The notes beneath the pieces are model-generated. The model was not told the origin of the DNA and did not search any database. It saw only the letters and a list, made by a program, of their open reading frames with translations. The position numbers were made by a program, and so were the translations under genes. A stretch of 63,916 nucleotides of DNA, filler included, from Klebsormidium nitens (Eukaryota > Plantae > Klebsormidiophyceae), in assembly GCA_000708835.1 (NCBI GenBank). It is 6 parts of 6 records of this genome, joined end to end, with 100 filler letters (N's around TTAATTAATTAA, not from the genome) between each part and the next. Parts side by side here need not be neighbours in the genome. Positions count along the whole stretch, not along the records: positions 1 to 24,082 come from DF237426.1; 5 more parts are not named here. One strand, 5' to 3'. Of the stretch, positions 11,737-61,885 are shown piece by piece. Numbering within the stretch: position 1 is the stretch's first letter; each line of letters opens with the position of its first letter.

Positions 11737-11966
11737 GATTTTTAGAGACTTTTTGGACGGCCAGCTCTGATGACGTCAGCAGCCGTACAGCCACCCCGAT
11801 TCGGATTGAAGTTGTCCAAGTTGTCCAAGAATTTTGACGACTTTCTGGGGGGCCAAGCTCTGATGACGTCAGCAGCCCTACAGCCACCCCGTTACGGATT
11901 CGAGTTGTCCAAGTTGTCCAAGATTTTGAGCGACTTTCTGGGGGGCCAGCTCTGATGACGTCAGCA
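11720..11966. repeat. Three tandem ~92-bp units, TTGTCCAAGTTGTCCAAG...GATGACGTCAGC (orientation A)
   Basis: Units start at 11720, 11812 and 11905. Confidence 0.95.
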
Positions 11967-12144
11967 GACGGTTCTTGTCCCAGGTGTCTTAGTTTTTCTA
12001 GCGTCCACTTTTGTCACGGGACCCTGGCCAAGATGGGTCATGGTTTTGTCCCTTTTTGCCACAAAAATGTCCCCTTTAAGAAACGATGATGACGGATTTC
12101 CACACGGTCAACTACAATTGCATCTTTCACTCGGAATGGTGATT

Positions 12145-12290
12145 GCTGACGTCATCATTCGTGTTCTTCGAAAAAGTTGTTCAAGAACTTGGACACTTTG
12201 GACAACTACATCTTCTTGGGATGGCTTTTGCTGACGTCATCGTTCGTGTCCCTCAGAAAGGTTACCCAAAGTTTTGGACACCTTGGACAG
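12145..12290. repeat. Two ~85-bp units, GCTGACGTCATC...TTGGACACnTTGGACA (orientation B, the reverse complement of A)
   Basis: Units start at 12145 and 12230. Confidence 0.9.
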
Positions 12291-15200
12291 TCCTGGGTCT
12301 GGTGCCATCGACTATGAATACATTCTACCCGGGAATGGTCGGACGAATCGGGCAGGCTCACTTAAAACGCGCGCTCTCAACCGCAAGCGTTCCACGAGAT
12401 CAGCAGGTGTCCTACTTTTCCGAACTTGGGAAACATTCCCCCTTTGCAATACACTGATATCGTCTTGTGTGCCTGTCTCCCCCGCAGGATGCCGCGCCCT
12501 GTGCCGCGCAGGTTGGGGCAACGCCCTGTCTGGACCCCATCCTCGCCGCTGCGCATCACTTTCACTCGTTGGGAGTCGTGACCGTCACCCTCGACCTTGA
12601 TGAGGAGTGCAACCGCGCTGGCGAGGTCAAGAAGTCCGCAAAGCGCTTGGGGGCCTGGAGCCAGGCCAACTACGGCAACTGCCTGAGCGAGGAGTTTGCC
12701 AAACCCGGCCGAAACTCCATTGCCATCGTCACGGAGGCGTCCGACATCTTTGCAGTCGACGTCGATGTGAAGGACGGGGGTTTCAAAGCTCTCGAACGAA
12801 TGCTCGAAGAGCATGGGGGTTTTGTAGACGATACGCCCCGCGTGACGACCGGGAACGGGGGGCTGCACATCCTCTTTTCTCTGTCCAAGTCCGAGAAGGC
12901 CGGTCTGCGGAACAGCAGAAACCGGGCCCGGATTTGGTACAAGGGAGAAAGGGTAGGCATCGACATCCGCGGCAGAGGGGGGATGCTGTACACTGCACCC
13001 AGCCGCTACCAAGGCCTCGACGGCGAGCTCCGGCGCTACGAGTGGGACCACGAGATCCACCCCAACCGCTCTAATCTCAGGGCAATTCCGGATTGGCTGA
13101 TAGCCATTCTGAATGTGGACCAACCGGGCACTGCCAATGGGGCCCGTTCCAGAACTAGGTAAGTCTGGTGCCAACTTGCTGCAATCGCTCCCCGAGTGGC
13201 TGATCTCGGTCATCCACAGCCCGGAGTTTGAGCAGCACCGATTAAGCGCTCTGTCTGGTCCGACTTCACATTTTAACGGTTGATTCATGCTTGCGCTCAG
13301 GATGCAATGTTCATCTCTCCGTTGAGTGCGCAATCGAAGCTGTGCCAGAGATGCTGCTTACACAAACAACTGTATTAAAAGAAGTTAGTTGATTGACAAA
13401 GGTGCACGTGTTGCCCATAGTCCGAGCACTGGTGCTTTCTGCTCTGACAGAATCTGAGAGAACCTGGGCTCGTCTTTGGTGCTTCTCGTTGAGCCACCGT
13501 GCTGACGAAATCGAGGATTCTCTGCAGATTGCCAGCCCCGGTGCCGTGCCGCTCCACTCGCTCACCTGAAGACCTGTTTTTCGGGGCTCGAGAGGAGGAC
13601 CAGTCTCCCCCGCCGCCCACCGTTTTTAGCGCGTCGAGGAATGCGTGGCAGCCACCGGGGACTCGCACTCCCGCTTCGATAAGCTGAAGAGGTCTCCTGC
13701 TGGCGAGCTGTACGTCTTTCGCACAAACGGCCCGCGCACCTGTCCTTACGGGGCGCAACACAGTGGTAAAAACAACTTCTGCGTCTTGTTGCGCGGGACC
13801 GACCTCCTCTATCACTGCAACAGCCCCGAGTGCTGCAATGTACACCCTCGGCGAAAGATCGGGGAGCTCACGCTGCGCGATAGCATGCTGGGGGGAGAGA
13901 CGGCCCCTGTCGCGGCCGAAGACCCCACCGTGTACAAGATGCTGACCAAATCTTTTCGTGGACGCCTGGGCGTTTGACAAGGACAAGGGCGGTAGTCGAA
14001 TCGCAGCCCAGATGTACTCAAAGTGCCGGAGGTGAGGAGCCTTGCAGCGAGAGCGTTCAAAGTGAAGTGATCTGCACATCGTCTCTCTTGTGGACAGGTC
14101 TCCCCTTGGTCGGCCTCGGTTGCTTACCTAGAAGCTATCTCTGTCTTTGCTTCTGGAATTTTTCCGTGTTGTGGGGCGCCAAGTCTAGCAATCTGATTAC
14201 TTCCAGAAGCACGAGCATCAGTACCACTGAAGCCCCACCAATCAAAGGATGCGGTCCATGTTTTGAGGTGCTAGCAATCTGGCATGCATTCTCGTCTCCA
14301 CGGACCCATGGGCAACTTTACTACTCTTTTCTTGAAGGCTCTGGCACGACGGAAAGGAGTGGTGGATGTGGGAGGGAAAGCGCTTTCAAACGGCGAGCCA
14401 GGCTCGCGTGCGCTACATCATCATGCATCAGCTGAGCACCGTGTACAAACGAGTGAGAGTCGAGCTGAGCGAAGAGTTGGCGGGAACCACCAATAAGGAG
14501 AGGGCTGCAGAGCTTGAGGCTCTTCTCAGGAACCTCAAGTCCTACAATTGCTCGCATGAGGTCGATTCGACCCTGAAGATCATGGAGGGAGAGATGTACT
14601 TGTGCCTGGCTAGCGAGCTGGACGGCGATCCCGACATCCTCAACGTCCGGAATGGAGTGATCGACCTGCGCACCGGTCAGCTCGACGTCCACAGGCCAGC
14701 GTATGGCTGCACGATGATAGCGGATGTAGACTACAAGGTGAGGATGCATTCATCGATTCCACTTGGAGTGGCTTCTGTTTGTACGGCAGTGGGGCCCGGC
14801 TAAGCTTTTCTGTGATGAGAGCGCTCGGCATCGGCATACGCAGAGGGCCACTTTGCAAGCTTCCTTCTCAGCGTCTTCCGCTCAGATACTATCGCATGAT
14901 CAGCATTGAGAAGAAATGTTGTCCTTGCAACTTGTGGCGTCAAAGATGGAGTGTATCTAAAGCTTCGATGCAGATCTTGGGCGAGGCATTGGTTCGCCCA
15001 GATTGACGTTTCAGCTTGAGACGCAAGAGCAGAGAGAGAGAGAGAACAATTGGACTCATCCAGACCTTCCTCCTTTTTCCCTGAAGGGACTGGACCACCC
15101 GTCTCCCACTGTCGACAACTTTCTGAACGACATCTTCAACGAAGATCGGGCCCTCATCTACTTCATGCAGCGACTCTGGGGATACTCTATCAATGGGAGA

Positions 15201-15313
15201 ACGACGGCGGAGCTCATGGTGTTTCTCCTTGGAATTGGCGGTAAGTTGAAAAGATCTTTTGCACCTCAAGTCGGTGGCACGCAGCAGTCCATAGACGGCG
15301 CATATACCACCGC

Positions 15314-15372
15314 GTCCAAGGTGTCCAAGCTTTTTGTAGGCCTTTTTCAAGCGCCAATCTGGTGACGTCAGC
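15314..15372. repeat. A-type TGACGTCA/TGTCCAAG unit inside the D5 intron
   Basis: gtccaaggtgtccaag...tgacgtcagc. Confidence 0.75.
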
Positions 15373-15440
15373 CGCTGTCAAAAACGCATAGCCTTATAGA
15401 GTTGAAGTTTGTCTGGTCTGACTGGGCAGTTAAATCGATC

Positions 15441-15863
15441 TTAGGTTGGGCAGACGAGACACTCTCCACAGAGCCTGTTCAGAACAGTCAAGTATTCCTG
15501 AACTTTCCCTGGCTTGCAAAGCTCGTTTGAGATGTGATACTCAACAAGGGTCTGATGGCAAGCAGCCTCTGTCAAACGACAATCCTCGGCTTCGAAAGCC
15601 CACAGTTGAATCTCTTGACCGTAGTAGGTCACGTAACGGCTCTGGAGATCCGGAAGGGTACCCTTCCATGAGCCTATTTTGACCACTTGCACAGTGGGGG
15701 AGGTTACAAGATACACAGATCCTCTGAGGCTCTCTGCTTGTTCTGCTTGCTCTCTGCTCTTGACAAACGTGGCCTCGTCCCAGAGCAGGCATCTGAGGGA
15801 TGGCAGGTTCTGAGATATTTCTGCCGGCCGGCCGGAGTGCTCACAGCAAGCTCCGGCCGGCAT
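15441..15863 (-). CDS. T5orf172/MUG113-like (GIY-YIG superfamily) nuclease nested in the D5 intron
   Basis: GSVYLV..VKIG..L..RY.T..E...H..L..Y...E matches the T5orf172-type pattern. Confidence 0.65.
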   Translation of the reverse strand: MPAGACCEHSGRPAEISQNLPSLRCLLWDEATFVKSREQAEQAESLRGSVYLVTSPTVQVVKIGSWKGTLPDLQSRYVTYYGQEIQLWAFEAEDCRLTEAACHQTLVEYHISNELCKPGKVQEYLTVLNRLCGECLVCPT

Positions 15864-15904
15864 GCAAAACAGACGGTACTAAGTCCTGAATTGGAACGCG
15901 TCTG

Positions 15905-16020
15905 AGGTGTCCAAGCTTTTGTACGACTTTTCTGTGCACCTTCTGATCACGTCAGCAGCTGTCAATGGAGCTTGAGGACTGTACCCAAGTTTCTCTGACG
16001 GCTTTTGAATGATGTCAGCA
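15905..16020. repeat. Two degenerate A-type units inside the D5 intron
   Basis: ggtgtccaagctttt...gatcacgtcagcag and gaatgatgtcagca. Confidence 0.65.
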
Positions 16021-17112
16021 TGGGTCAGATTGCAAGAACACAACCGAGTCTAAGCTTCTAAGGATATGAATCTCCATCAGGCAACGGAAAAGGAGTCTGC
16101 AAGCAGATGTTGGAGGCCACGCTGGGCGACTACTATGGTGTGATGGCCAAGGACGCCGTGGTGAAGAGCCCCGGACAACGCCCTCCCTCCAAAGGGGGCG
16201 CGACGGGGTACCTGGCCGAGCTGCGCGGCTTGCGAGTCGCTATAACCGATGAGACCAGCCCCGGCGAGCGCGTCGATTTGGGATTGGTCTTGCTGATGAC
16301 CGGGGGCGGCAAAGTTACAGCGCGATTGCTCTACAAGAACAACGTCGCCTTCCGCTGCTCTCACACGCCCTTCAACCAGACGAACTACGATCCGGAGATC
16401 CCACTGACGCTCGCGAAACAGAACAACATCGATCGGCGTCTGATCGTGGTTCGGTTTCCGAACGAGTACGTGACGGAGAATAAATTCGATGCATCCAACC
16501 CCAGCCACAGGCTAGTAGATTCCGGGCTGAAGGATCGGATGGAGACGATGGTGGTCCGAGAAGAGTTCCTCTCATTCTTGGTGAGGGGGAGCGTCGCTTG
16601 GTACGAGAACCCGGACGTCTTGAAGACCCATCCTCCTGCCGTTCAAGCGGCGAGGAACGCATGGTTGCAAAAAGGGGACAAGCTGCAGGTATTCTTGCGG
16701 GAGCACTGCGTCATGGATCCCAACGAGACCGCCGAGAGAGATCTGTCGGTGGTTTGGGAGGAGGAGTTTTGGGTACGATTCCAGGTGTATGCCGGTATGA
16801 AGATCCCCAAGGAGGAATTGGCTAGGCAGATGGGAGAGAAGGGGTATCCTAGAAGGAAGCGGCGCTCTGAGACGGGCAATCCGGATTCAGGAAGAGCTCT
16901 TTGCTATTTGGGCTTCAAATGCGAATACTAGGCGGTTGGATGAGCCACGGTTGTTTTATTTGGTTGTCAAGACCCGCGAGCCTGCACCGTAAACAACAAG
17001 TTATTGCGACCTTGCATGTTATTGCGCAACTAGGCTTGAGCACAATACTTATACGACTTTGCGCAGTCGAGCATGGGATGTGCCTTAGCCGTGTCGTGCA
17101 TCGCGGTACTGT

Positions 17113-17296
17113 GCTGACGTCATCATTGCATGCCCACTGAGAATACTCTGCGTACAAGTTTGGACACTTCGGACATGCGCACATCTTTGGCCATGCTGAC
17201 GTCATCATCCGCATGCCTCAGGAAAGTCCTCCAGAAATTTGGACACCTTGGACAAGTGCATTCTACTCCAATGGCTGGTTTGCTGACGTCATCATC
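17113..17296. repeat. Three B-type units (GCTGACGTCATCAT...TTGGACAC.TTGGACA) downstream of D5 copy 1
   Basis: Units start at 17113, 17195 and 17282; the third is partial. Confidence 0.9.
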
Positions 17297-17351
17297 TGCG
17301 TTTGCATTTTGTATTGGCGATCATATTCTCCGCCTTCAGCCTGCCTGCTTG

Positions 17352-17741
17352 TTACGAAGATTCAGTGTAACCGCGCTCCAAGCCGGTATCGAGCATCTGC
17401 TGCACTACATGCAATATTAAGTTCACTTGCTGCACTGAATATCCGCCCTCTTTGTATCCAATTCTTAGTGCGCAATTGAGGAAGGCCACGAGAGTGCTTA
17501 GTGTGGTCGTCTTTGATATGGGTTCCATAGCATGAACTAGGAGCATAAGTATACCTCTTCTCAGATTTGTATTGTGGATCGAATGATCTTGTAGACCTCT
17601 CTCGATCAACCGGATTGCACTATCCAACTGTGGGTTGAGTTGATCGACTTCAGCTAGAAGGTGCCGCATGTCATGATGCTCGTCAATCCGGACAGTACAT
17701 AGACTAGTCGTCGGTTTGGCGAGACAAACGATATGTGCCAT
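17352..17741 (-). CDS. Hypothetical protein
   Basis: 129-aa ATG-started ORF in an intergenic position. No domain recognised. Confidence 0.35.
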   Translation of the reverse strand: MAHIVCLAKPTTSLCTVRIDEHHDMRHLLAEVDQLNPQLDSAIRLIERGLQDHSIHNTNLRRGILMLLVHAMEPISKTTTLSTLVAFLNCALRIGYKEGGYSVQQVNLILHVVQQMLDTGLERGYTESS

Positions 17742-17823
17742 GGTCCCAATAATTCCTAGTAGTTACGAAAAAAAACTTGTGAAGAGGCGGTTTCATCGTT
17801 GCTTATCCAGTATGAAGGTGGGA

Positions 17824-18345
17824 CTACTCTGAGTCGGATCCCGATTCTGAATCGTCGTCGGACTCGGCTTGCTTTGCCACCAGCTTCCTCTTGGTTTTTG
17901 ATTTCATAGGACTGGATTTTTTGCTTGCCGTTGATTGTTCTGCCAGGCTGCGACTGGGCTTGACTTTTAATGGCTTCTGCAGATGTTCGAAGGCGGCCAA
18001 GGAGAGCTTAGTAGCTGTGGTCTGATAGCTGCCGGTGAAGCCCATATTGGCCGGTCGGTCACTCTTCTTAACACTAGAAATATACACAGTATATGCGAAA
18101 TGTTTGTTAGCAGACCCTCGGGTGCATTCTCGGATCATTATGCTAAAGCTTATAGGCAGCGTCTGTCGTTTGCCCCGGCATCGCTGGGTACGATACAATT
18201 GCGACCCTGCCCTTGCACCCGCCTGACAAGGACGCCCTTTCTGAGCGTCAATCTCTAGCCGGGTATCTGCCAGCAACGGTAACACGTCGTCTCGCTTGTC
18301 ATCGAGCGCGCCAATCACCTTGAATGAGCGTTTCATTGGATCCAT
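17824..18345 (-). CDS. Hypothetical protein with a Lys-rich then acidic C-terminus, possibly spliced
   Basis: 173-aa ORF ending KSKTKRKLVAKQAESDDDSESGSDSE. Confidence 0.35.
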   Translation of the reverse strand: MDPMKRSFKVIGALDDKRDDVLPLLADTRLEIDAQKGRPCQAGARAGSQLYRTQRCRGKRQTLPISFSIMIRECTRGSANKHFAYTVYISSVKKSDRPANMGFTGSYQTTATKLSLAAFEHLQKPLKVKPSRSLAEQSTASKKSSPMKSKTKRKLVAKQAESDDDSESGSDSE

Positions 18346-18718
18346 AGTAGCCTAGTGCACTTGTTAATGATGGCGCAGGAAAAAAAAGAGCACCCCTAGT
18401 GCATCTGGTTTTGCACTAGGCCTGAGCATGGATCTCAATGTTCAACCAAGCCTGGCAAGCAGGGATCAGACGGTTAGAAACGCATGCGGGAGAGCTACTC
18501 AAAAAGTGACTCGTGGCATTTACGTTAGCAGTTACAAAGTCTAAAAAAGTCGACTTTTTTAAGGATAGTTGGGCCCCCGCCTGCACTTTATGAGAGGTTA
18601 CCATAGGGGGTGGTTTCTTGTGACACTTTATTCTGACATTGCATGTTGAAATAACTCGTTCGCTTGGCTCGACATATTAAAAATTATCTCCGGCACTGTA
18701 TTAGGAGCCCACATAAGT

Positions 18719-19552
18719 ATGGATCAAATTCGTGAAGCGCTTTCTGATGGTATTAGGGGCGAAAGTTCCGTCAACTAGTACTGCAATGGGATTGGCCTCT
18801 TATGGAAGATATGCTTCGAGGACGATATAGCCAGCCGACCTCTCCTGGCTAAAGACAAAGGCGCGCAGAATTACGGATGCTGTGCTCGAACGGTATGATA
18901 ATCCAGGCAGTCGGCGAACTCGTCTGGCGCCTTTTCTTGCGGTTTGTTGTAAGTTAGGCTTCTCGGAAGCCTATTCGATCTACTACGAACCATTTAGGAA
19001 GCAAATTACGTCCCTAAAGGCGTTGCGGACCGAGCGAGAAAAAACTTCGACCGTTGAAGATCCAGCTAATATGAGTAGTGATGAAATGGAGCACTATGCA
19101 AAGAAGGTGTCACGGAGGGTTGAAAAATGAGTCTCGATGGACACGAATTGACCTCAAAGGACTTGAAGATCGTGATGATACACGTTATCCTTGAATGGAA
19201 CTTGCTCCTAGCTTGAGAGCATCTACCACGTGTAAAACTATACGGTGAGAGTGCTCTTCCCATCTTGTCTAAGAGGCAACACCGGAAGGACAAGGAAGAT
19301 AGAGCCGTTACTCTCGTGCAAACCTCTCGTTGCAAAGGACAGTACAAGCTCGTATATGACAACGGTGAAGAATACCAGCTTTCAAAGATGTTGTGCAAGT
19401 ACATTCACAGAACACTAGAATTGGTTCCGAGGGGATTTCTGGTAACCTCGATCAAGCATCCGGAGAGTCCGATGACGGCAAGTAACTATTCGATGTTTTG
19501 TAGCAAGATAGGCACGAATGGTAAGTTTCTCAATACTGGGAGCTTAAAGTAA
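18719..19552 (+). pseudogene. Decayed paralog of the downstream tyrosine recombinase
   Basis: Blocks align to the intact copy: ESSVN*Y~DSTVNNY, LAPFLAVCCKLGFSEAY~AAPFAILAAHLHDNEAH, ELTSKDLKIVMIHVIL~KLNRHDKQLVMDHLIL, YIHRTLELVPRGFLV~VILRSFNLIPRQYLI. It has stops and frameshifts and lacks the RH/GH/Y C-terminus. Confidence 0.7.
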
Positions 19553-19614
19553 AACGCGCTTCAATTCGAGAAATAAATTTCCTAGGAGGTATTAAGGGAT
19601 TCAAGACTTGGACC

Positions 19615-20664
19615 ATGGATGGTGAGATGGAGAAGGAGATGCGCGCAATTTTGAAGAAGCAGAGTCCAGACAAGGTTCAACGTGGGGCTCCTCCAAATCG
19701 GGCAGATTCAACGGTAAATAACTACATACGAGACGTGCGGCACGTTTTTGTAAAGGGACCCTGGGGGGGGACGATCCATGACCTTGATTGGGTAAGTGAT
19801 TTCAACGCCGTCAAGAAAGTGCTGAAGGGGCTGACGAATTCTCGAGATGGGAAACCCTTGAAAGATCTCACCAAGGGGAATTACGCAGCTCCCTTTGCAA
19901 TCCTTGCGGCCCACTTGCATGATAACGAAGCGCACGCTGCATATTCTCGCTTCATACAGAAAATGAAACCCACACAGGAGGATCTGGACCAAACGGCTCA
20001 AAAAAAGACCCCAAAAGAAGTAGACAACTGGGTGAGTTGGTCCGAGCTGCTCGACAAGCGTAAAGAACTCGACCAACGCATCAACTCTGAGGTGGTGGCT
20101 AAATTTCGAGATGATCAGAAGTTAAATCGGCACGATAAACAGCTCGTGATGGATCATCTGATACTCTGTCTATACACAATGCCTCTTGGACCACTTCGAA
20201 ACGAATATGCGCATTGTAAGTTCGTTTTGCAAGAGGAGGACGAAATCGAGATCAAGCCGGGTGACGAAAATCTCTGCGAGTTGAATGAAAATCCCGACCA
20301 ATGCTTTTTCTACATCGCACGGCATAAGACCTTGGAGAAAGATGGAGTTCGAAAGCTTGAAATTCCTGAAAATCTTGTGAATGTGATACTCCGCTCTTTC
20401 AATCTCATTCCCAGGCAATATCTAATACTCAAGAGACACTATCTTGACTGGAAGGACGAATCGATAGCAAACTTTACCGTTGTCTTGAACGAGTTAGGAC
20501 AGAGGCACTTCGGTAAGAATCTATCTTGCACATTGCTTCGACACATAAGTCATACTGAGGAGAGTCCTCGATTGCATTCACGCGGTGAGATGCGGGCAAA
20601 AGCGAAGTATATGGGGCATAGCATGAGGACAGCGGACGAGCTCTATAACAGACGATACGGGTGA
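19615..20664 (+). CDS. Tyrosine recombinase/integrase of the virophage/Polinton-like-virus type
   Basis: Intronless 349 aa. Catalytic pattern PLRNE (R), HKT (K), LLRH (R), MGHS (H) and ELY (Y) in the correct order. Confidence 0.85.
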   Translation: MDGEMEKEMRAILKKQSPDKVQRGAPPNRADSTVNNYIRDVRHVFVKGPWGGTIHDLDWVSDFNAVKKVLKGLTNSRDGKPLKDLTKGNYAAPFAILAAHLHDNEAHAAYSRFIQKMKPTQEDLDQTAQKKTPKEVDNWVSWSELLDKRKELDQRINSEVVAKFRDDQKLNRHDKQLVMDHLILCLYTMPLGPLRNEYAHCKFVLQEEDEIEIKPGDENLCELNENPDQCFFYIARHKTLEKDGVRKLEIPENLVNVILRSFNLIPRQYLILKRHYLDWKDESIANFTVVLNELGQRHFGKNLSCTLLRHISHTEESPRLHSRGEMRAKAKYMGHSMRTADELYNRRYG

Positions 20665-20731
20665 CAGCTTATGGTGCGCGTCACCTGTGCCCACAAATTT
20701 TCTCAGGCTTGAAACTAAGGGGCGTACCGCC

Positions 20732-20971
20732 ATGTCGGGCATCCACAATCACTCGAGCTCTTCCTCGTGTCCAGCCTGCTTTGAATCGGCGAAGTACAAG
20801 GAGGAAGTTCAGGCAAAAGGCAGAAAATATGCCAGATCCTATTATCAACTGCATAAGGAGCGGATCTTGCTTAAGAAGGCCCTCGAACGGATAGAGAAGG
20901 GTGTTCGAGTAAGCAGATGTACTAGAGAGCGGTTAAATGAAGCTAACATTCACTCGCTGATCAAGGCGTAG
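20732..20971 (+). CDS. Small basic hypothetical protein with CxxC
   Basis: 79 aa, CPAC followed by basic helix YARSYYQLHKERILLKK, packed between the recombinase and the helicase. Confidence 0.5.
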   Translation: MSGIHNHSSSSSCPACFESAKYKEEVQAKGRKYARSYYQLHKERILLKKALERIEKGVRVSRCTRERLNEANIHSLIKA

Positions 20972-21177
20972 AAGCGCTCATCGGAGTGAAAGCCATTCAT
21001 AAGGACTGGACCACTTGGTGAATGATGCAGAAGTGCATGCAATCAATACATGCAACTTTTGAAGCACATGAAAGCTTGTGCTTCAAGGCGGCAATCGTGA
21101 GGCCATTCGTAGTGCGTTTGTCAATGTCTATTTTTTTCTCGACTTGAAAACAATAGGAGGCGAGCGGATTTGGGACC

Positions 21178-24018
21178 ATGGAATCCACAAAGCTGATTGG
21201 CGCTTTGGAGGAGTACGCACAAGAGGGTCTCTATGCTATACCAGCAAAGGCATCCCTTTGGAAAGACGGCACCAAAAAGGTGCTTGGGACCATGCCGCAT
21301 ACCAACGGAGACTCAGCTATACGGTCTGGCTCCGATTGGAGTGCTTCTAGGGCAAGAATTCTTGAACACATTGAAACGAGAGGATACAACTTTCTTGCAA
21401 TCAAAACCGGTGCTATATCCGATTGCTTCGTCCTAGATGTAGACGTGAAGGACAAACAAGATGAGGATATCTTAGCTGGAATGCCCTATTGGCAAAGCTT
21501 GATCGAGGAGCACGGTGAGCCCGACACTTTGAGAGCAACCACTGCCAGTGGGGGCCTCCATTACTACTTCTCGTTTAGTAGCACAATCAAAGAAGGGCTT
21601 GAATCCGGCAAGAATTTCGTGGGGCTGGATGTTGACGGTCAGGTCTACGGCATTGATGGTCGCGGTGAGGGGGGAATAGCATTCGCTCCACCAAGCACTC
21701 TTGGTGAAGGCAGGGAATATCGATGGAACATGCCGCCTAAACGGACCAATATCAAGGCCGCACCTACGTGGGTTGTCGACCTTGTCAATGCGTCTGCCAT
21801 AAGAGCTGGTCACACTGGAAGATCGAACGCAACCACTCGAAGCGGGATCCAAGCAGTGCATTATCCAGAACCCACTAAGCACCATGATATCGAGACCTTC
21901 GCAGATGATGGAGACCTGAACGAGGAATCTTTGGACACTCAAGAGGCTGAAGCGCGTGAACACAAGATTGCTGCTGCAATGATGAAGCTGCTAAGAGATG
22001 CTGGGTTAGATGAGAACGTTAGCTTCTCGGGGAAGGTTTCCTTTCGTGGCCCTCTTGGTTCGATTTACTCCTTCACCTGCAGGGGGCCTCGGCGGTGTAT
22101 TCACGGCCACCGCCACAACGGCTCAAACAACTTTCGACTCATCAAACGGGGATGGGTCGTGCTTTACCGTTGTTTTGGCGTAGACTGCTCGGAAAAGCCG
22201 CTCGAAGAGTTGGGCAATCTCAGCCTTGCCGACTCACTGCTTGATGCGAATCCCACAAAATTGCACCCAACTTTCGACCGTTCCGTCTTCCCAGACAATT
22301 GCAAGGCCATATCACAAGACGAATGCGAGTCTTATTTGAAGCTCATCAGACGCAACGTGATGCACCGCTATCGGGGTCTTGCAGAAATCTTCAGCGCCAT
22401 ATATGCCGTTGATGGACGTATCCTTGCTGAGGGGAAGACTCTCCGGTATTGGAACGGACGAAGGTGGCTACTTGATGGTTCCTTCCACGTGCAATCCGTC
22501 TTCTCGAGCCACATCGCAAGGATTCTGCGCTGGTACGAGAATCAGAGACTGGCAGCCTTTAAAAGGGAGATCTATAAGCTCGCAAAGGAGTCGGAAGAGT
22601 GGGGTTGCATACCGGAGGGATCCGAATATACGCTTCCGGAGTGGGCAACTCATCCGAAGAGCGAACAAGAAAAGGAAGCCTGCCGCCGGGCGTGGAAGGC
22701 AGTCGCAACCACTTTGCCATACCCCCCGCAAAAAGATCTACCGGATCTGACGCGTTGTTCTGAAGTGCGCATCTGCCTTGAGTACGTCGTCAATTCGTTG
22801 CAAATCCAAGAGGATCTTAACGCCCTGATGGACCTCGCCAACCCTTTTCTGTTTGCATGTGCTAATGGGGTGATTGACACAACGACCGGACAGCTGCTCG
22901 CACCCCATCCGGCCCAATTGTGCTCGCGAGCTTCGAAGGTAGCCTTCCGTGGTATGCCAAGAAGCGAATCTCGATTTGCCAGGTTCTTGCTGGATTGCTT
23001 CAACGGCAACAGACAAGTGCTCGACTGGTATCAACTCTACCTCGGGTACTGCATGACTGCTGACACAAGCGAGCAGATCTTTTTGGTCAAACAGGGGGAA
23101 GGATCGAACGGAAAAACACTGACAAAGATTGCTTCGTTTGAGATCTTTGGGTCCTACGCAGTGGTCATGGACCGAGACGTAATCATCGAGGCCGGCGGCC
23201 GACGCAGTGCGGGGTCTGCATCATCTCACCTCATGGCCTTAAAGGGGGCTAGATTGGCGGAATCAGACGAATCAGGCGAGAAATCCGTTCTTAACGAATC
23301 GACCATAAAACAGTTGTCCGGAGGAGGCTCGATCACGGCACGAGAGCTCCAAGGTAGGCAAGAGAATTTCATGGTGACCCACAAGGCAATTCTAAACACG
23401 AACTACAAGCCGGTCATGGAGAACGCATCATTCAGTCTTATTCGCCGTATGGCCCTTCTTCCGATGATGGTCACCTTTACGTCTGCCGAGAGTCTGAATC
23501 CAAACAAATCAAGAGAAAAGGCGAGAGACTCCACTCTCGAAGCATACCTCAAGTCTGATGAAGGCCGAGAGGACGGGCTATCATGGATTGCAGCAGGAGC
23601 GAGCCGCTACTTCGAAATCAAACGGGCAAAGCCAAGCGCCTTGGTTCTCGAGAAACGGCCAAAGGCTATGGAAGACGCACTAAAAGCTTACGTGAATGAC
23701 GCTGACGTTGCTAAACGTTTCATTGAAGATTGCTTGGAGTTCGAAGAGCTGCATCCCGGACAACGGGCAACCTGGCCTTTGGCGGGGGGTGAGCGCTTGC
23801 AAGAAGCCTTTCAGACATGGATCAAAGAAGAAGACGTGTCTAGCTCCATCACCGCAACAGCTCTCAAGAAACGAGTCGTGCTGTATGCCGATGGCGGCAA
23901 CCATCAAGTTGCGGACGGTCGCTTCACTGACAAGAAGGTCCAATTAAGGGGTCAATTCAAAGGCCTCAGTGGTGTGCGTCTAAGGCCTGAATACCTCGAC
24001 AGCATTTCACTGGTGTGA
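21178..24018 (+). CDS. Intact, intronless Prim-Pol/D5-like primase-SF3 helicase (copy 2), 946 aa
   Basis: FVLDVDVKD, TTASGGLH, GPRRCIHGHRHNGSNNF, ACANGVIDTTTG, Walker A GEGSNGKT, Walker B AESDE, motif C ILNTN, Arg finger IRRM. Confidence 0.92.
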   Translation: MESTKLIGALEEYAQEGLYAIPAKASLWKDGTKKVLGTMPHTNGDSAIRSGSDWSASRARILEHIETRGYNFLAIKTGAISDCFVLDVDVKDKQDEDILAGMPYWQSLIEEHGEPDTLRATTASGGLHYYFSFSSTIKEGLESGKNFVGLDVDGQVYGIDGRGEGGIAFAPPSTLGEGREYRWNMPPKRTNIKAAPTWVVDLVNASAIRAGHTGRSNATTRSGIQAVHYPEPTKHHDIETFADDGDLNEESLDTQEAEAREHKIAAAMMKLLRDAGLDENVSFSGKVSFRGPLGSIYSFTCRGPRRCIHGHRHNGSNNFRLIKRGWVVLYRCFGVDCSEKPLEELGNLSLADSLLDANPTKLHPTFDRSVFPDNCKAISQDECESYLKLIRRNVMHRYRGLAEIFSAIYAVDGRILAEGKTLRYWNGRRWLLDGSFHVQSVFSSHIARILRWYENQRLAAFKREIYKLAKESEEWGCIPEGSEYTLPEWATHPKSEQEKEACRRAWKAVATTLPYPPQKDLPDLTRCSEVRICLEYVVNSLQIQEDLNALMDLANPFLFACANGVIDTTTGQLLAPHPAQLCSRASKVAFRGMPRSESRFARFLLDCFNGNRQVLDWYQLYLGYCMTADTSEQIFLVKQGEGSNGKTLTKIASFEIFGSYAVVMDRDVIIEAGGRRSAGSASSHLMALKGARLAESDESGEKSVLNESTIKQLSGGGSITARELQGRQENFMVTHKAILNTNYKPVMENASFSLIRRMALLPMMVTFTSAESLNPNKSREKARDSTLEAYLKSDEGREDGLSWIAAGASRYFEIKRAKPSALVLEKRPKAMEDALKAYVNDADVAKRFIEDCLEFEELHPGQRATWPLAGGERLQEAFQTWIKEEDVSSSITATALKKRVVLYADGGNHQVADGRFTDKKVQLRGQFKGLSGVRLRPEYLDSISLV

Positions 24019-25544
24019 CCGGAGAGACGGGCCAACAGACTTGCAAGACGCTGGGCAGCGATCTGTGGGCGGCGGACCGCATNNNNNNNNNNNNNNNNNN
24101 NNNNNNNNNNNNNNNNNNNNNNNNNNTTAATTAATTAANNNNNNNNNNNNNNNNNNNNNNNNNNNNNNNNNNNNNNNNNNNNAACATTGACACAGGCCAG
24201 TACGAAATCACGATTTGTTACTTGTACACTACACTCAAGGTCACATACACATGGACAGTGCGTCAGAGGTACCGGCGGTGTCAACGCAAGAGCAGATTCG
24301 CTCAGATGCTTTGAATCCATGTCGGGATATGATCTTACTGATGCCGTCGATAGAATTCATCGGAGGGCCACTTTTGCCTTTTTGCTAATAGCAAATCGTG
24401 CTCGGCCGAATTGGAACGATCGCGACCCTTCGTTTGAGCTAGGCTAGCCTCAGCCGGCTTTCGCCGTTGATTTGGAACAGTCAAGATTCAGGGTTCAGAC
24501 CAGCCATTGCTGGCCCAATCCCCGGGCACCGCCTCCCGATCACTTTGAAGGTGTTTTATATAGAATAGTTGCTCAGATTCTAAAGCGCAAATTTGAGATG
24601 CTCTCTGTCCAATCGGTTGCCCGATGATTCTAAACAGAATCAGTCCTGTGCAAGAGGAAAAGGGTCTTCGGTTACTGTTTCTAATTCACTGAAGTTCTGC
24701 AAATGATTAAATAATTATCAGTCTGTCTCTCTTTCTGACCACTCGGCGCCGCACAGTACGTGCGTGCATACAAGAACTCGCTTTTGCTACTAGTACCGTA
24801 CGGTAATGGTACGTGTGTACAAGAATCCTGACATATCTTGGCCGTGCCCGGTTCTGGTCTTCCAAGAATGTCCGCTTCCGGTCTTCCAAGAAAGGCTTCA
24901 TCAAGCCTGATCATGCAAGAAAATGTGCACAGTTCAAGTAGTACATAGTAACACAATGTTTAATTCCAAATATTACGTCAGCAAGCTGCTGACGTCACCT
25001 CCTTGACCGTGCCTGGGCGCCGCCTTCTGCCACTAAAAATCCCGAAAAGGAAAAGCTGGAAATGAGGAAAGAAAGTTGGTTCGGCTCGCTTTTATACTCT
25101 GAAAAACTGAGGCCGGTGTCGTGACTCGGTGTGCTTGAATGCCTCACGGAGCCTGGCACGAAGGTCCACTTCTAGTCTACAACCGTCCTTAGCCTTCTGG
25201 TTAAATCAGAAAAGTTCTAAGGTATAAGCGGGAAAAGTATCGAGTATTCTAGTCAGTTCTAAAGTGACGTCTTTTATAATATTCCGGACCCTATGGTTAG
25301 TGACGTCAGAGACCTCTTATACAATCCCTGTTCCGACTTGGTCCGTCTTGGTGTCAAGGAACCCTCTTGGTGGTCTTTATTTTCCCGTGAAGAGCCGGGA
25401 CAGCATAGTCTGGGTTCAAATAAATTGCTGGGCCCGGCCGTACCAGCATAAAATATGCTTTTTGTAAAAGGGGGGTCGCTGGGGTCATAACCCAGGCGAT
25501 CTTGGCGGGCCTAGTAGGCCCCGACCCCCTGACTGCGGTCCAAA

Positions 25545-25633: not shown

Positions 25634-27388
25634 AAAATGTGCACAGCCGGAGATCAACATCTGCTGCACGAGTGCGGGTTTTATACCCCGACGCCCACTT
25701 TAATTCATGTATCTCAGCAGGGGTTCTGGCGGGGCGCCAAACGGGGCGCAGTGCGCCCCGGGGCAAATACTGGCGCCCCCGGGCGGAAGCCCGGGGCGCC
25801 ACGGCGCCCTGGGCCGCAGGCCCCGCCTACATATGGAAAACTAGGTACAAAGGTCCGTTTGCATGGAATCCAGGCCGCCTTAGTGACCGGGAACTCTGGA
25901 GTATTGTCGAACGAAGAAGAGAGTATAAGCGCATTGTGTTTCAAATATCTTTAGACCCAATACCTAAATGGTCAAAGCCTACATGGTTCTAGGGGAGTTC
26001 TAGGAGCTCAGGAATACTTCCAACAGGATTCTAGTCCAAGGACAGCCCCCTATGGTTATATATTAAGGTACTTAGATATAATATATCCCCATTGAAATTC
26101 TACATAAGCAGCTTTTCCTGTGGCATCGCCTTTGAATACGCTAATAGGGTTCTTCCGACTTCATGGCAGGCTGCTTGTATACCGTACGGCGTAGACCAAT
26201 GACAAGGACCGGTATGAACAGGATGCGGCTCGGTTAGAATCTAGTTAACACCGCGGCGTCCAGGAAACCCGGAAATGTGCCGGGCGCTCGAACCCCGCGC
26301 CCGGCTTGGCTTGGGCGCCCCAGGGGAGCTGGTCGGCGCCCCGGGGCGAAGCCCAGGGGCTTCACAGCACCTCCGGGCAAAATCCTGCTAGAACCCCTGT
26401 ATCTCAGGCTCTGCCAATCAATCATAGTCCAGTGTCCATACTCTCCGTGCGAGATTGCGGATCCACGTGGCCCGAGTCCAAGACTGGTCCGAAGTTTCTG
26501 CCCTGGGGCAATCCGAGATCGAGAAGTTCTTTGTCAATGCAAGACTGCCCGGTATGAAAGCCCGGAACCGCTTCCCGGCTCAATCACCCAGCAGCTACCG
26601 TTCCGCATTCAACCCGAGACTACCCGGTAGATGTTCCCGGCCATCTTTGTACTTCCTCATCCCGACCGATCCGAAAATACGTACGGAAGTATGTCAGCAC
26701 GATGCGGAAATGTCGGGGGAGACTCTGTCGGGAGTCCGGCTTGGCGCATGCATACCTATATTGCCACCACTGCCAGACTGCTCTAAAGTCGAATCACTCT
26801 GATGGCTCTCTGTGTAGTGCGAAAAGATCAATGCGGGGACTTCCTATTGTTCCTTATAGGTAGTTCATTGGTTCTGCTTTGACCATTTGAAAGTCCTTCT
26901 TGGCCTTCCAGACGGAAATGTCTGTGATCCAGTTTCCAGATTTGGAAAGAGGTACGATGGGAAGCAAAAGCAGCTCACGGCATTCTTCTCATACTCTGTT
27001 TTAAGAGCTAGTCCAGCTGCAGTGCACGGGTGCAAGCTACATGTAGAGCTTAAAAGTCTTCAAAGCCAGCAAAACCGCCAGCTTGTTCAGCAGACGGTAC
27101 CCAAGAACTTCAATGCAAGTTAGTCCTATTCTGGCTGCTTCCACTCGCCTCCTCACATAGGCTTTCAGCTGGTGGATATTGCTGCTCAGCTGCTATTTAA
27201 ACCAGCTTGTGTTCTTTGGAGCCAATCCTGGGCGACCAATCAACTGAACAAGCAGTATCTCTTGCAGCAGCAAAAAACCAAAACGCCCCCATCCATTTTG
27301 ATAGACAGGAAGCGCGCCTCGGCTTTGTATAGACTTCCCCCAGCTGCCTGATCATAATAGCATACTAGCGATATTGGCGTCAGCATAA

Positions 27389-30300
27389 ATGAAGGGCGGC
27401 GATCTATTTTCAGACACCACCAGGCTTAAGTTGACGGCCCTCATTCACAGCTATGCCTCTAGACACAGGGGGCCGGTAGCCTGTGTGGTGCTGCTGGCTA
27501 CATTGCTGTCGGCTCTAGTTGTCACCATGTCGGGAGGAACGGCGATTCCGCCCCTGCTGAAAGCTATCAGAGGCTATCAAATGGGTAAGAGCGCTTCCTC
27601 AACTTCCACGATCTTAGAAGAGGAGATTCTGTGGAGTCCCTGCTACCTGCCTGCTAGCTGATTGCCCCTCCTCCCAGTCTTCTTTCCTCTTAACCCAGAC
27701 TCCTCGCTTGTCTTCCCTTCTTGACTACTCTGCGGATTCCCGCTGATTACTCCGCGCATGTCCACTTTCTTCTTCTCTGTCTCTCTCCCGGCTTTTGAAC
27801 CCCACAAGGATTGTTGGAGGTGATGCATGAGGTTGAGTATCACCAAAAGACAATAAACATTGCAGCTCAGGAGTCAAAGCTCTTCTCTCGCTGCGGTAAC
27901 ATAAAAGTAATGTTGTGTCGTCATGTCAAGATGATAAGTGCTGGCATTGCCTGCGGTTTGAAGGAAGTTTAGCAGCATGTCCCTGTCCACTGTTGCACAA
28001 ACAGCTCATTTGAGCTTCACGAGTACGGTGCTGATTGGAAAGTGTGGGGCGCCAGGCTTGCGACGATCGGTCTTGTCACTGCTATCTGCAGGCGATCTAG
28101 GAAGTTGGTGCACGTTTTCTTTCCTGAGCAGTCCTGTTTGAAGATGTGACAAGCTCAACGATCGCACGTGTGCCTCTTCATACATGACCTGTTAATCTTA
28201 CATTCCAGAAGCTTTCTGTTGCAAATGTGCCTATCTAACCAAGAAAGTCACCTCTCACTCTAAGCATCTCAGAAACAGACGACTCGGACAGTCTTTTTTA
28301 CGTAAAAACGAGATGAAGCAAAGCTTTGACTGCTCTGCAGGTCTTGAAAACTTTGCCCCCGCTGCCCCTCCCAGCCCCCAGATATTAGACTTTCTTGCGC
28401 GGCTGAAGGCAAAAACACTACCCCTTGGTCCGTACGCCCCTTCCGGGGGGGCGTGCCTGGCCCGCAAGGAGAGAGCGGAGTACCCCCCCAGAAAGGTGGA
28501 CGATGCAAACGGGATCGCTGCGCAGGTCTTTGACGCGTATGCTGCATATCACCGCGGTTGTATTTCCAACATGAAAAATGTCACAGAAGCGTGGCGGGGA
28601 GAGGAACCCCCCGAGGGGTGCCAATTTGTGGTCTGGTCGGGACGCGCGGGTTTGGGGAACAAGATGCTGAACCTGGCGTCGACGTTCATGTATGCAGTGC
28701 TGGCTCAACGAGTGTGAGCGTCGCAAACCCCATCCTTCTTACCCTTCATCCTTCTTTTTCACTTCCGTCGGATTGAATTTAGAAATTCGCGGTCAAATGG
28801 AACTCTGTGTCATTTGTTTCTGACTGGCAGGTGTTGTACTGAGGGTCTGGCGCAATGCTGACATGTTGTGGTATTCAAGACCCGCCTGAATGAAGGAGGC
28901 CCACGATGTTGGTAGGCTTAACATCTGTCCACAAAAATAATGCTTACACACGAGCTCATACCACTTCGTGTTGACCTTTCAGGGTTTCAGGTTTTCGAGG
29001 TTTGAAGATTCAGGGTCTCCTAGAAGCACAATCCATATCTGGGATATCCCCACCTCTGTGGATAAGGGATCTCCTCACCTCCGTGAATATGAATTTAAAG
29101 TGTGTTCCAGGTTGAACCAGTTAGGGCTCTAGATGAAGCTACTGTTGGCTTTGAGAGAGGGGCTCGCCATTGGTAACAGCACCGTTCCAGGCAAGAGTCG
29201 AAGGGTATGGTTGTCTGACCTTCAGTCTACTTTCTTCAAAAGCCGCGCATTGCTAGTCAGCCAGGCAGCGCCACTTTCAGATGCCTTGGAATCAAGTAGA
29301 TGACTCACCTGGTCAAATCTGTTCCAACTGCTGTTGTTCCTATATTACTCAAATTCTCCGTCAATCTCGTAAAGTGATTTCCAGTTGACACAGGAAGGGC
29401 AACATGACACAGTTGCTCTGCCCTTCTGAGACATACAAGTCGCCTGACACCAGTTGTGTGTCCCTTCTTCCCTTCAGGCTCTTGGTCAATCCCGGTGTCG
29501 AGGCGGCCCTCGGGCAATTGTTTTGTGAGCCGTTTCCGGGGTCGAGCTGGCTGCTTCCGGAAGAATTCCCGGTTCTCAAGATGTTCGACAATTTGCCTGT
29601 GAGACGTCCATTCCAGACTTGTTCTGCTATGTTCTGCCGTTTCGTATTTTGTGGGTTCCCAAGTCCGCATCCTAGCCCCAAGAGAATGGTCAACACAAAT
29701 CAGGACGACTAAAAATTCTGTCTCGTTGGACCTCCCTCTGGCCTTGAGTATTACAGTTCCTTAATATTACCTTTGCCAGCTTGCTACGTTCATTCCCTGT
29801 CAGCTTCGGTGTTTGACACCCAAGTGGAACTGGTCCGGATGTGCAACTTCCAGTGCCGTCGAATGTCTCTCGCCAGGCTCAAGATCCACTTTTTGAGCAT
29901 CAAGACGAACAGAAACCGGGTCCTCCGAAATCCGTCGGCCACAAGCGTCTAAAAGTCAGCACAGTGAGAGATATGAGGACTTGATTGCCGGAAATGCTTA
30001 GGAATAATTTCATTGTCGTTTCAACAAGCCTTATCGATATCATAACATTATCAAAATCTTCAATGATGGATCGTCAAGGTCCGCAGGTAAGCGATGCATC
30101 AAAAACTCTGGCTGCCACCTATATGAAGCTATATTCTGTTCTCACATGTGTGATTGTGGAAACTAGGAATCCAAGGTTAATTCTTCTGAAAGAATCATCC
30201 GACACTCTGGCAACAGAACCATTAAGAGCAGTCACAGCGCTTCGTTACTACTACTCCGCGATTTTGTCAACCGTTCAAGCTTCTACGTCCTTGTGCAGTG

Positions 30301-33220
30301 GCCTATGAGCGACGTTGGGGCCTTAACTGCCTGCGAAGAGGAGATGAAGGAACTGGAGACGCGGACGTGGTTCATCTTTCCGCACGACACGTGGAACAAC
30401 TACTGGTGGGCGCTTTTTCTAGTTCCTCTTTGTAATACAGCCAAGTCCTTACGCGGATTGAGCCTTTTCTTTTGAAATGCGGGATGAGAGACTGGGAAAC
30501 TGAGCAGAGTGCCAAAAGCCCGACCTGCCAATTGACCTCTTTCGTGAGGACGTCGAGCTTCTCGGATATTCCAGTGAGTCAGGAATGAAGCTGGCACTGA
30601 GGTCTGCAACAAGCTTCAACCTTGTCAGGCTCTCTGGTAAACGTCAATGTGATGTTACCTTTCCGCATTACGAAGACCTTAAAAGTCGACCTTGTGGGGC
30701 CAAACTAATTGAGGGAAACACCGTCGTTCAGAGACTGTTGTATGGAGGTCCTTTCGAAGAACAGTTTTATGTGAAGCAAAATAATCGCGCAGAGTGTTGG
30801 CCAAGGATCGGCGTCGATCGAGTCGATGTTGAGGCGTGGGTCAGTACTCAGTCGATGGACTGCTAAGTTGAGTTGGTCGAAAGTTCCACTTCAAAATAGT
30901 TTGGAAACTTGATTGAAAAACGTCGCCTACTCTGTAATGAGCAAACCATCATTGTGCAGGCTGCCCGGTCTTTACGTGCATCCCACGAAGCGGCTACTGC
31001 TCAAAGAGCTCTTCCCAGATAACCAGGTGAGCTCTTACTTTCAGGAGGAACCCCCTTTGGAGACGCCCAGAATCATTCTTGCCCAAACATTCTGACATGG
31101 GCACCCGTCAAGGGCTAATCGCAACTAGTCAACGCTTTCTTTACCAAATTAGAAAGCCAACAACTTGGCATTATATTTCTCGCTGAGGTAGAACTTTCTT
31201 GAAAATAGAGTTCTTGGCGGGGTTTTTGCGACGTGATATGTGCCAAATTTACGTCTCCACAAGATCACACAAAGTACAATGTCTTTTGAGGATGGAGTTC
31301 TCCGATCTTCATTTGTTATACTGGGTTCCTGCTGCCTCCCACCGGGACGCGCCACATTTTTCATCCTGCCCAAGGGCCCGTCTGAAAACTCTCGTCGCGT
31401 CCTAGGTTAGGAACGAATATAGCTGACGACACGTTTGCTTTTCTGACGAAACAGCTCGCGCGCGCAGGTGTTCCACCGGCTGTCGCGCTACCTCTACCTG
31501 CCGCAAGACCGCATCTGGACACGTGTCACTTCGTTCTACAATCAGCACATGGCCGGCGCGACCAAGTCCGTGGGGCTTCAGATCCGACAAAAGGGCGACG
31601 GAAAAGAGCTGTATTACCAGCGGACCAGTGACAACGCGCTGACGTGTATGGCCGAGCATGAATTGATTCCGAGGCTGGTTGACACACTGCCGACCCAAGA
31701 GGGGGTTGAGATTTCCGAGGCGTCGAGCAAAGACGCGTTCGATGTGCTGTTTGTTGCGAGCATGATTCCGCAGTACGAGGAGCATCTGAGGGAGGTGTTC
31801 AGCAAGAACAAGACGGTGGCGGGGCGCAGAGTCAAGGTCAGTACTGGTTGCTCATTCCCCGTTCCCCAACGTATCTCTCCTTTTCCGGTCTCTCTGTTTG
31901 CCCTTCCTTCTTTGGTTATCCCGTTTTCTTTGCAACGTCGGATGACGTCACGCGTCTACCTGCGGCATAAGATTGACGTCAGGTACCGGGGAGCGCTTCT
32001 CGAGGGGGGAAAGCTCGCTAAGGTCCATAATACGTGTCCCCTGCATCATTAGTTTGACTTCGCTTCCTCCTTTGCAACACCACATTACAATCACTTCAAT
32101 TGTGGCACGTTTTATGAAGTAACGAGCGGAGAGATCAGGCTCTTCCATGAAGGCACAGGTTCCACCTTGCTTTCCATCCTCCTTGCTGTTTGGGTCCACT
32201 TCAAGTAGTGCACGTCAAGCAGGGGAGGGTCGTTGGTCATGGTCCAAACGTCTAATAATTCTTTTGCCAGTATGGAGGAATGTTGATAAAAAAGAAGGGA
32301 CTCCGGTCGCACGAGCACGAAATGCTTACGGAGTGATGCAAAGGGAAGATCGTTGCTTGTGCCTCTTTCTCGTCGGGGCTAGTTCGAGCGTCGTCATGCA
32401 GTCCAAGTCTTTGTCAATTGCTTCGGTATTGTATTCTGGAAGTAGAAAACGAGTCTCTCAAAGTGGTTCACAACAAGCCTAGAGCCCTTTCAGGGCTCAA
32501 GAGCTTGGACTTTTCCCAGCTGAGTTGCGAACTTTCCTGCCGACGGACTCATTTGCATGAGAGACGTCTTCGTTTTGGGTTCTTAGATGCATTTGAGCAG
32601 GCTTGTTCCTCGAATTCGGGTTGGGACACCGTTCTGCCAATGAGTTCAGGCGACACGTTGCAGCATCCCCGGCGCAAGTTCTGACGTCAGCTCCTTGACT
32701 ATCTGTCAGTTGTTTCCGTTTCACCATCTCTCAAACCATTGGATGATAAGATGCAGTGGTCCCGACTTTGAAGACGGACACTTGACGCACAACGCAATCT
32801 GGCTTACGAACGTAACTCTTCCTGCAAATCCTGACACGTCTCCTTGATCCGCAGGTGTTAAGCGCGACGCATGAACAAGAAGAAAAGTGGAGCGACCTCT
32901 CGCACTATGATTCGGCCGTCGTAGACGTCTGGCTTCTCAGCTTCACCGACCGTCAGATCATCACGCAAACCTCGACGTTCGGTTACGTCGCCTCAAGCAT
33001 CGCTGGCACAAACCCCTATTACGCCAACTACTACTCCTGCGAGCGCGCCAAGAATCACGATCCGTGCTGGCACTCCGCCCCGCAGTATTTGGTGTGTCCA
33101 AAGATGCCCAACGTGGGGGGGCCCATTCACATGGCGAGTCCGGAGATGGAGCGCTGCTCGGACTTTTTCGGGGGGGTCACACTTGTGGACGCTAAATCGA
33201 GCTATCTGGAAGCGTCGTAA
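27389..33220 (+). CDS. Xyloglucan/galactoside 2-alpha-L-fucosyltransferase family (GT37, FUT1/MUR2-like), multi-exon
   Basis: Exons 27389-27584 (N-terminal TM), 28341-28713 (GLGNKMLNLASTFMYAVLAQRV), 29478-29598 (LFCEPFPGSSWLLP), 30299-30405, 30960-31026, 31468-31836 (VFHRLSRYL, VGLQIR) and 32855-33220 (STFGYVA, DPCWHSAP). Splice phases are compatible. One short exon between 29599 and 30298 may be unresolved. Confidence 0.9.
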
Positions 33221-61866: not shown

Positions 61867-61885
61867 CTCCCCCACACATTGATGA

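Follow-up and report, generated by a model that had tools for sequence, protein, structure and literature searches.

This study concerns a compact block of genes in a stretch of 63,916 nucleotides (the window) from the genome assembly of the alga Klebsormidium nitens (GCA_000708835.1), in which six parts of six records are joined end to end. The block lies near the right end of the first part (positions 1 to 24,082, from DF237426.1), and its core consists of a tyrosine recombinase, a broken recombinase paralogue that we call YR2, a small CxxC protein and a primase-helicase. We lean, with modest confidence, towards reading it as the integration-and-replication end module of an endogenous family of Polinton-like viruses (PLVs) of Klebsormidium-type algae, present here in a copy without a visible capsid arm. 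In its workings the block resembles a PLV end module. That it belongs to the PLVs is not established: no capsid gene, ATPase gene or terminal inverted repeat (TIR) was found in the available sequence, by tests of limited power. The new feature of the block is a conserved, dead recombinase paralogue. The core genes are the following.

18719 to 19552, + strand: broken copy of a recombinase paralogue of about 270 amino acids (YR2); five pieces match the YR2 profile in order
19615 to 20664, + strand: predicted tyrosine recombinase, 349 amino acids, from fold match, conserved catalytic residues and relatives
20732 to 20971, + strand: basic CxxC protein, 79 amino acids, with nine relatives at 63–68% identity
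21178 to 24018, + strand: predicted primase-helicase, 946 amino acids, with Prim-Pol, D5_N and superfamily 3 (SF3) helicase parts, from domain matches and SF3 motifs

The last three genes are open, without introns and on the same strand, separated by spacers of 67 and 206 bp, and the original prediction of an intact, tightly packed and co-oriented trio stands. The word “intact” does not stretch over the whole interval from 18719, as its first part is a fourth gene, which two in-frame stops and two changes of frame break into five pieces. That gene had been overlooked, and so had two small leftward open reading frames (ORFs), probably also members of the element.

The arrangement is that of a PLV end module: a tyrosine recombinase adjoins a primase-helicase, with the helicase toward the end. 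According to PMC11296320, the primase-helicase of such modules has the recombinase on one side and an inverted repeat on the other, and the modules are suggested to be mobile. The modules described there for AHEV_PLV2, CBEV_PLV1 and Gezel-14T share with our block the two enzyme classes, their order toward the presumed end and mosaic exchange. The Klebsormidium block adds the dead paralogue and the CxxC gene, its primase is a PF09250 Prim-Pol, and neither an inverted repeat nor a capsid arm was seen in this copy. Likewise in a green-algal genome, the Tetraselmis element TsV S2x has a D5 helicase-primase adjoining a tyrosine recombinase on one arm and capsid genes on the other (10.1101/2025.10.09.676808); TsV S2x has its capsid arm, TIRs and reactivation, whereas the Klebsormidium block is known from genes alone. 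The layout has been published for both, and the suggestion of an “undescribed mobile system” is not borne out.

The two recombinase genes

Searches of Pfam, NCBIfam and PHROG gave no recombinase match for the 349-residue protein, and PF00589 is matched by just 2 of the 83 members of its family. The AlphaFold model (pLDDT 95) fits best to XerA (E 4e-4), followed by a run of Cre, integron and lambda integrases. In the 83-row alignment the catalytic residues are kept: K238, R309 and Y344 in every row, R195 in 82 and H335 in 77. The first catalytic His is replaced, by Thr in this protein and mostly by Ser, Thr or Asn across the alignment. On the strength of the modelled XerA/Cre fold and the R, K, R, H, Y set, the protein can be assigned to the tyrosine recombinases.

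It has 2,669 relatives at E ≤ 0.001 and, as judged from sequence, appears to belong to a family common to PLVs, virophages and algal giant viruses, presumably the OLV11-like one. The OLV11-like recombinase was defined for PgVV-type PLVs (PMC4642659; 10.1101/2022.07.28.501842); such a recombinase is most frequent in PgVV-like PLVs (10.1101/2022.07.28.501842) and occurs also in one giant virus (PMC4642659). PLVs of the PgVV/Gezel-14T type thus share with the block the recombinase family (25% identity to PLV-like IMG/VR contigs) and the host lineage, the latter through the seven PLV capsid loci reported in K. nitens (PMC10120064, supplement Tables S1, S4 and S5). PgVV uses TVpol-SF3, whereas the Klebsormidium block uses Prim-Pol/D5/SF3.

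Recombinases at 25–26% identity to ours lie on two PLV-like IMG/VR contigs. Contigs bearing this family also carry an A32 ATPase, a tail-fibre-like gene, a lipase and a presumed capsid pair, the capsid label being drawn from gene size and position. One such contig (L001, 1123–11798) encodes a presumed minor and major capsid protein, A32, the recombinase, a tail-fibre-like protein and a lipase; it also encodes a Tet/JBP-type oxygenase (E 3e-20).

For YR2, a 99-residue piece of the window's copy finds 11 relatives at 48–54% identity, and full-length members of the family have 271–277 residues. HHalign relates YR2 to the recombinase family over 245 aligned columns (probability 98.75%, E 1.5e-16). 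By fold, its best matches are Cre and XerA, and they are weak, with no Foldseek match at E ≤ 0.001 and a best Z of 6.9 (rmsd 16.1 over 206 aligned residues). The loop that holds the catalytic Lys is deleted in the YR2 family, the RH and MGH motifs occur in none of the 19 members inspected, and the proteins end about 45 residues before the catalytic Tyr. With the Lys loop, the RH/MGH motifs and the Tyr end all missing, the recombinase paralogue that the relatives retain cannot cleave DNA through the known mechanism. Contigs of other copies depart from the window at three of the four YR2 break points; contigs that agree with the window exist for both frame changes, so these changes are real in at least one copy. 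A predicted complex of YR2 with the recombinase, modelled without alignments, scored 0.00.

A literature search that left most subscription papers and all bioRxiv supplements outside turned up no paper on the family of the block, nor one describing a dead paralogue of the recombinase in PLVs. Tyrosine recombinases also confer mobility on Cryptons and on bacterial multi-recombinase elements such as Tn554 and RIT, the bacterial ones having tandem recombinase genes plus a small gene. Cryptons are not known to have a replicase, and the paired recombinases of Tn554 and RIT keep their catalytic residues, unlike YR2.

As for the two genes downstream, the CxxC ORF is a real gene in view of its nine relatives, and its product is possibly a small DNA-binding accessory factor. 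The 946-residue protein matches PF09250 (Prim-Pol, E 5e-17), PF08706 (D5_N, E 8e-11) and TIGR01613 (E 6e-38), all above cut-offs, and carries the motifs GEGSNGKT (Walker A), ESDE and NTN. With a primase domain, D5_N, Walker A/B and motif C, it is a predicted D5-like SF3 primase-helicase. A second Prim-Pol/D5 primase-helicase gene lies at 12458–16931 on the + strand, with 25–42% identity, in pieces, to the helicase of the module. This second gene is split by several likely GT-AG introns, has single-copy depth and has diverged relatives.

Copies and relatives

The copies were studied in short-read contigs from four runs (X1–X4) of one sample, which delimit one further feature.

18581 to 24082, no strand: stretch common with a near-identical sister copy, from contig depth and differences; still shared at the scaffold end

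From 4.4 to 18.6 kb the contigs are mostly identical to the window, at a depth of about 19–20 (X1, X3). Right of 18581, the listed X1 contigs have depths of 27–49 and 2–14 differences each, with the exception of one identical contig at 18.7; the three longest carry 32 differences in 3,591 bases. The last depth bin, at the scaffold end, is still 40.3, so the shared stretch continues past that end. The X1 pattern is repeated in X2–X4. Depth is no copy number, as the tool itself warns, and it is depth and differences together that indicate a near-identical sister copy, about 1% diverged, plus diverged copies. Other contigs link inner parts of the module to unrelated DNA, which suggests partial copies elsewhere. 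The expectation of a young, multi-copy, PLV-related element is thus supported, both by the sister copy and by the PLV-like IMG/VR recombinases, and the proposed copy count shows that the block is not single-copy.

The copies differ at 24 places within the recombinase and helicase genes; 15 of these differences are synonymous, against an expected site fraction of 0.21–0.23, and none makes a stop. The excess has p 1e-4 against a fraction of 0.25 and 0.003 against 0.33; 28 coding differences were classed altogether, 27 from the 40 shown of 80 and 1 from another contig comparison. Given this excess of synonymous changes and the lack of stops, the copies likely diverged while under selection.

The same contigs bear on the idea that the block is a free virus or a contaminant contig mis-joined to algal DNA. 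Its genes are intronless, lower in guanine-cytosine (GC) content and located at a scaffold end, as a mis-join might have them. However, an identical contig of 5,759 bp, at single-copy depth (18.8), runs from the intron-bearing gene at 12853 to the left edge of the module at 18611, the module contigs have only about 2–3 times single-copy depth, and the close relatives of the helicase include a named protein from K. nitens. A mis-join is, to us, highly improbable.

Close relatives account for 16 of the 17 recombinase matches (43–73% identity) and 8 of the 12 helicase matches (58–74%), one of the latter from K. nitens. Linkage of the genes in relatives was read from coinciding printed lengths of their longest contigs, in a count that excludes distant matches, the P0032 cluster and a single ENA length. 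Among 62 distinct lengths, 25 are common to at least two of the four families, 8 to at least three and 3 to all four. A recombinase length is matched by 15 of 28 YR2 lengths, 12 of 19 helicase lengths and 9 of 10 CxxC lengths, and one contig size, 14,958 bp, is common to two YR2 genes. All four genes (YR2, recombinase, CxxC and primase-helicase) therefore appear to recur together on public contigs. Two fused gene models seem to show adjacency more directly than shared lengths do: in a relative, the recombinase reads through into the CxxC protein (P0244), and a K. nitens model starts with the C-terminal segment of a recombinase and continues into a helicase (P0024).

In a quick recombinase tree of 59 rows, made without proteins shorter than 230 residues and without most of the 150 representatives, 15 close recombinases lie to the same side of a branch whose SH-aLRT support is 99. 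Across six presumed pairs, the recombinase and helicase trees conflict on starred branches, and the identities are uncorrelated (rho −0.14). This disagreement suggests gene swapping between elements, provided that each contig holds one element. Mosaicism has been reported for PLVs (PMC11296320; 10.64898/2026.10.13.758929).

Edges and surroundings of the block

Beyond the core genes, the following features mark the edges.

17352 to 17741, − strand: intronless ORF of 129 amino acids, with start context GGACCATGG and single-copy depth
17824 to 18345, − strand: intronless ORF of 173 amino acids, a probable member of the element from packing and GC content
18542 to 18561, no strand: perfect palindrome of 20 bp, in the spacer between the divergent gene groups
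24083 to 24182, no strand: assembly linker; the right end of the element lies beyond the window

The gap at 24083–24182 reads N44-TTAATTAATTAA-N44. Five such linkers, identical and 100 nt long, occur in the window, and they differ from its two gaps of plain N. The DNA right of 24182 may thus be non-adjacent, and 24082 is treated as the scaffold end, 64 bp past the helicase gene. That the right end is lost at 24083 was foreseen correctly: the shared stretch still runs at the scaffold end, and the gap is a linker. In the DNA available on the right side no repeat partner of the left edge was found, the right end itself being outside the window, and no end-to-end joint was seen among the short-read contigs. 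Two candidates were discarded. Matches of 24040–24070 to 10353–10421 (E 0.1 and 1.5) were taken as chance, and a joint from 19907 to 21964 with a 29-base side disappeared at higher stringency.

On the left, GGACCATGG stands at the starts of the 129-residue ORF, the recombinase and the helicase; these are the only three matches on both strands of the 64 kb, where 0.06 would be expected in 6.8 kb. The 129-residue ORF, which has no family match in library searches, is probably part of the element in this copy. The 173-residue ORF probably belongs too; it has no match in Pfam, NCBIfam, PHROGs, PDB, the ESM Atlas, IMG/VR or phages. We take it to resemble viral MC1-like DNA-binding proteins, a resemblance to which tool searches gave no support. 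The palindrome, as a sequence, is a candidate recombinase-binding or origin site. Palindromes of such length appeared in 4 of 500 dinucleotide-resampled versions of 17300–24082, and the arms of the one found here are A/T runs of low complexity. The fold of the spacer (18346–18718) is no better than that of shuffles (z 0.33), and a scan for sigma-70 promoters and terminators came out at chance.

Further to the left, a 140-residue ORF at 15441–15863 (− strand) has a weak T5orf172 (GIY-YIG-like) match (E 0.02) and lies antisense within a likely intron of the second helicase gene, near its Walker A region. Imperfect repeats of 60–93 bp, with cores TGACGTCA and TGTCCAAG, occur at 11720–12289, 15311–15381, 15897–15965 and 17115–17293, where they flank and interrupt that gene, partly inverted; by appearance they are origin-like. 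A related TGACGTCAGC array stands at 4452–4766. Two copies of another repeat, 70–80% identical and 8.2 kb apart, occupy 1–2216 and 8257–10265 and have no Pfam match; a further tail-to-head pair with 4.3 kb between was seen on a contig.

Beyond the linker, 27300–33300 (+) holds an intron-split host gene for a xyloglucan fucosyltransferase (PF03254). A 2.2-kb piece between two linkers (58739–60906, +) has a frame matching CxC4 (KDZ transposase-associated, E 5e-5) followed by a frame of 336 residues. Copia-type retroelement fragments lie at 61009–63822 (−) and 46077–46577 (+), with RVT_2 at E 3e-63 and pieces that look gag-like. Long frames of 375, 362 and 630 residues at 52904–54031 (+) and 54492–58000 (−) have no family match and are transposase-like by appearance. 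There are also two F-box-like intronless ORFs, at 35351–36250 (−) and 48514–49431 (+), and an inverted duplication of about 390 bp, 68% identical, at 47887–48951.

The capsid question and what the element may be

Capsid, ATPase and giant-virus genes were sought from 1 to 27 kb. Pfam was run on 150 of the 677 frames there, namely the longest ones, of at least 72 residues, excluding the two main genes and any frame contained within either. It gave two matches, both in the neighbouring helicase gene, and none to a capsid or A32, with a sensitivity that is limited: on the control contig L001 it finds A32 and misses the presumed capsid. Custom profiles were small, with 7 capsid-like sequences from one subgroup, 8 minor-capsid-like and 6 A32 sequences, and without the capsids of Table S2 in PMC10120064. 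The only Walker A motif in 1–27 kb is that of the module's helicase. It is thus unlikely that 1–24 kb contains an intact capsid gene, though there may still be one that is broken or spliced, or that lies beyond the gap. Of the predicted lack of a capsid gene, then, the part that stands is that none was found, together with the lack of A32; that the element is capsid-less is not established, given the weak capsid profiles and a right end outside the window.

These negatives are what one would expect of an autonomous capsid-less element family of about 6–8 kb, which would be excised as a circle by the recombinase, copied by the Prim-Pol/helicase and re-inserted, with YR2 and the CxxC protein in control. 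By analogy, it might travel in the particles of helper PLVs or giant viruses, as transpovirons do. The recurrence of the four genes as a set, the 14,958-bp contig size and the contigs that suggest partial copies also speak for it, and replicase modules moving alone have been proposed (10.64898/2026.10.13.758929; PMC11296320). The former paper reports AEP or PolA replicases as the partners of recombinases. Transpovirons and stand-alone AEP-SF3 modules resemble our block as replication or integration modules without recognised morphogenesis genes, but transpovirons are paired there with pPolB and DDE enzymes, and a bounded recombinase plus AEP-SF3 element is proposed, not demonstrated. On the other hand, the ends of the element are undefined, and the capsid tests are weak, divergent PLV capsids having first been missed by HHpred (PMC11296320). 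The host lineage has PLV capsid loci (PMC10120064) that would need such a module, and truncation accounts for the missing arm without a new class. We regard a capsid-less family as possible but doubtful. Equally tentative is its fuller form, a self-copying element of 6–8 kb in streptophyte algae whose dead twin steers excision versus integration and which swaps genes with co-resident PLVs.

The nearest predicted structures to the recombinase in BFVD are giant-virus proteins, from viruses of Aureococcus, Tetraselmis, Pyramimonas and Heterosigma, and the OLV11-like recombinase of one giant virus (PMC4642659) fits these matches. They raise the prospect that the block comes from an endogenous giant virus, either as a fragment of it or as a module that resided there, and was duplicated once inserted. 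Yet no giant-virus core gene was matched among the 150 frames, where intron-split genes would escape, the compact gene set recurs on many contigs, and the synonymous excess is more in keeping with a functional unit that replicates than with passive duplication. The 173-residue ORF looks MC1-like, and MC1 proteins are described in Nucleocytoviricota (10.1101/2024.02.22.580433), which speaks for such an origin; the resemblance found no support from the tools. We consider this reading improbable.

The reading as a PLV end module is supported by the PLV-like IMG/VR recombinases, the published layout, the seven K. nitens capsid loci, the mosaic trees and the synonymous excess; that both copies run past the scaffold end was also counted for it. 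A number of observations weigh on the other side, among them the giant-virus structures just mentioned. Over 1,629 frames the custom profiles reached best E values of only 6.7 (capsid), 5.4 (minor capsid) and 2.4 (A32), and 1–27 kb holds no spare frame above 326 residues. The end-module layout puts the capsid arm to the left, where 17 kb are other DNA, and no TIR, attachment (att) site or circle was seen. In the 59-row tree the clade of close recombinases shows no firm grouping with the two from PLVs. Finally, a capsid link was seen for no close relative, their flanks being unrecovered from metagenome contigs, prokaryote genomes and IMG/VR (0 close loci); these blank scans are uninformative, as the metagenome collection also lacks contigs represented in the protein database, and IMG/VR gave two distant loci. 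At 13,723 bp, the K. nitens scaffold that bears the close helicase agrees in length with none of the seven capsid contigs, a mismatch that carries no weight, as lengths of scaffolds and of contigs cannot be compared.

If the block is a PLV end module, the recombinase would excise and re-insert the element at sites near its end, and the Prim-Pol/SF3 protein would unwind, prime and extend DNA from an origin in a terminal repeat, which is predicted just beyond the helicase. YR2 may occupy these sites too, in a regulatory or architectural role such as that of a repressor or directionality factor; being broken in this copy, it would be supplied by another. Capsid genes would be present in full-length relatives and deleted here, beyond the gap or unassembled.

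Should full-length copies prove capsid-free, this alga, a close relative of land plants, would offer a bounded example of a recombinase and primase-helicase module acting alone, as has been proposed in recent papers. Should capsid genes prove linked, the gene content of the Klebsormidium PLVs would be filled in, which the literature we found reports as capsid loci only. The literature examined offers no settled account of how PLVs with a recombinase pass from the integrated to the excised state and back, and a dead paralogue kept beside an active recombinase in many copies is a concrete candidate for the switch involved.

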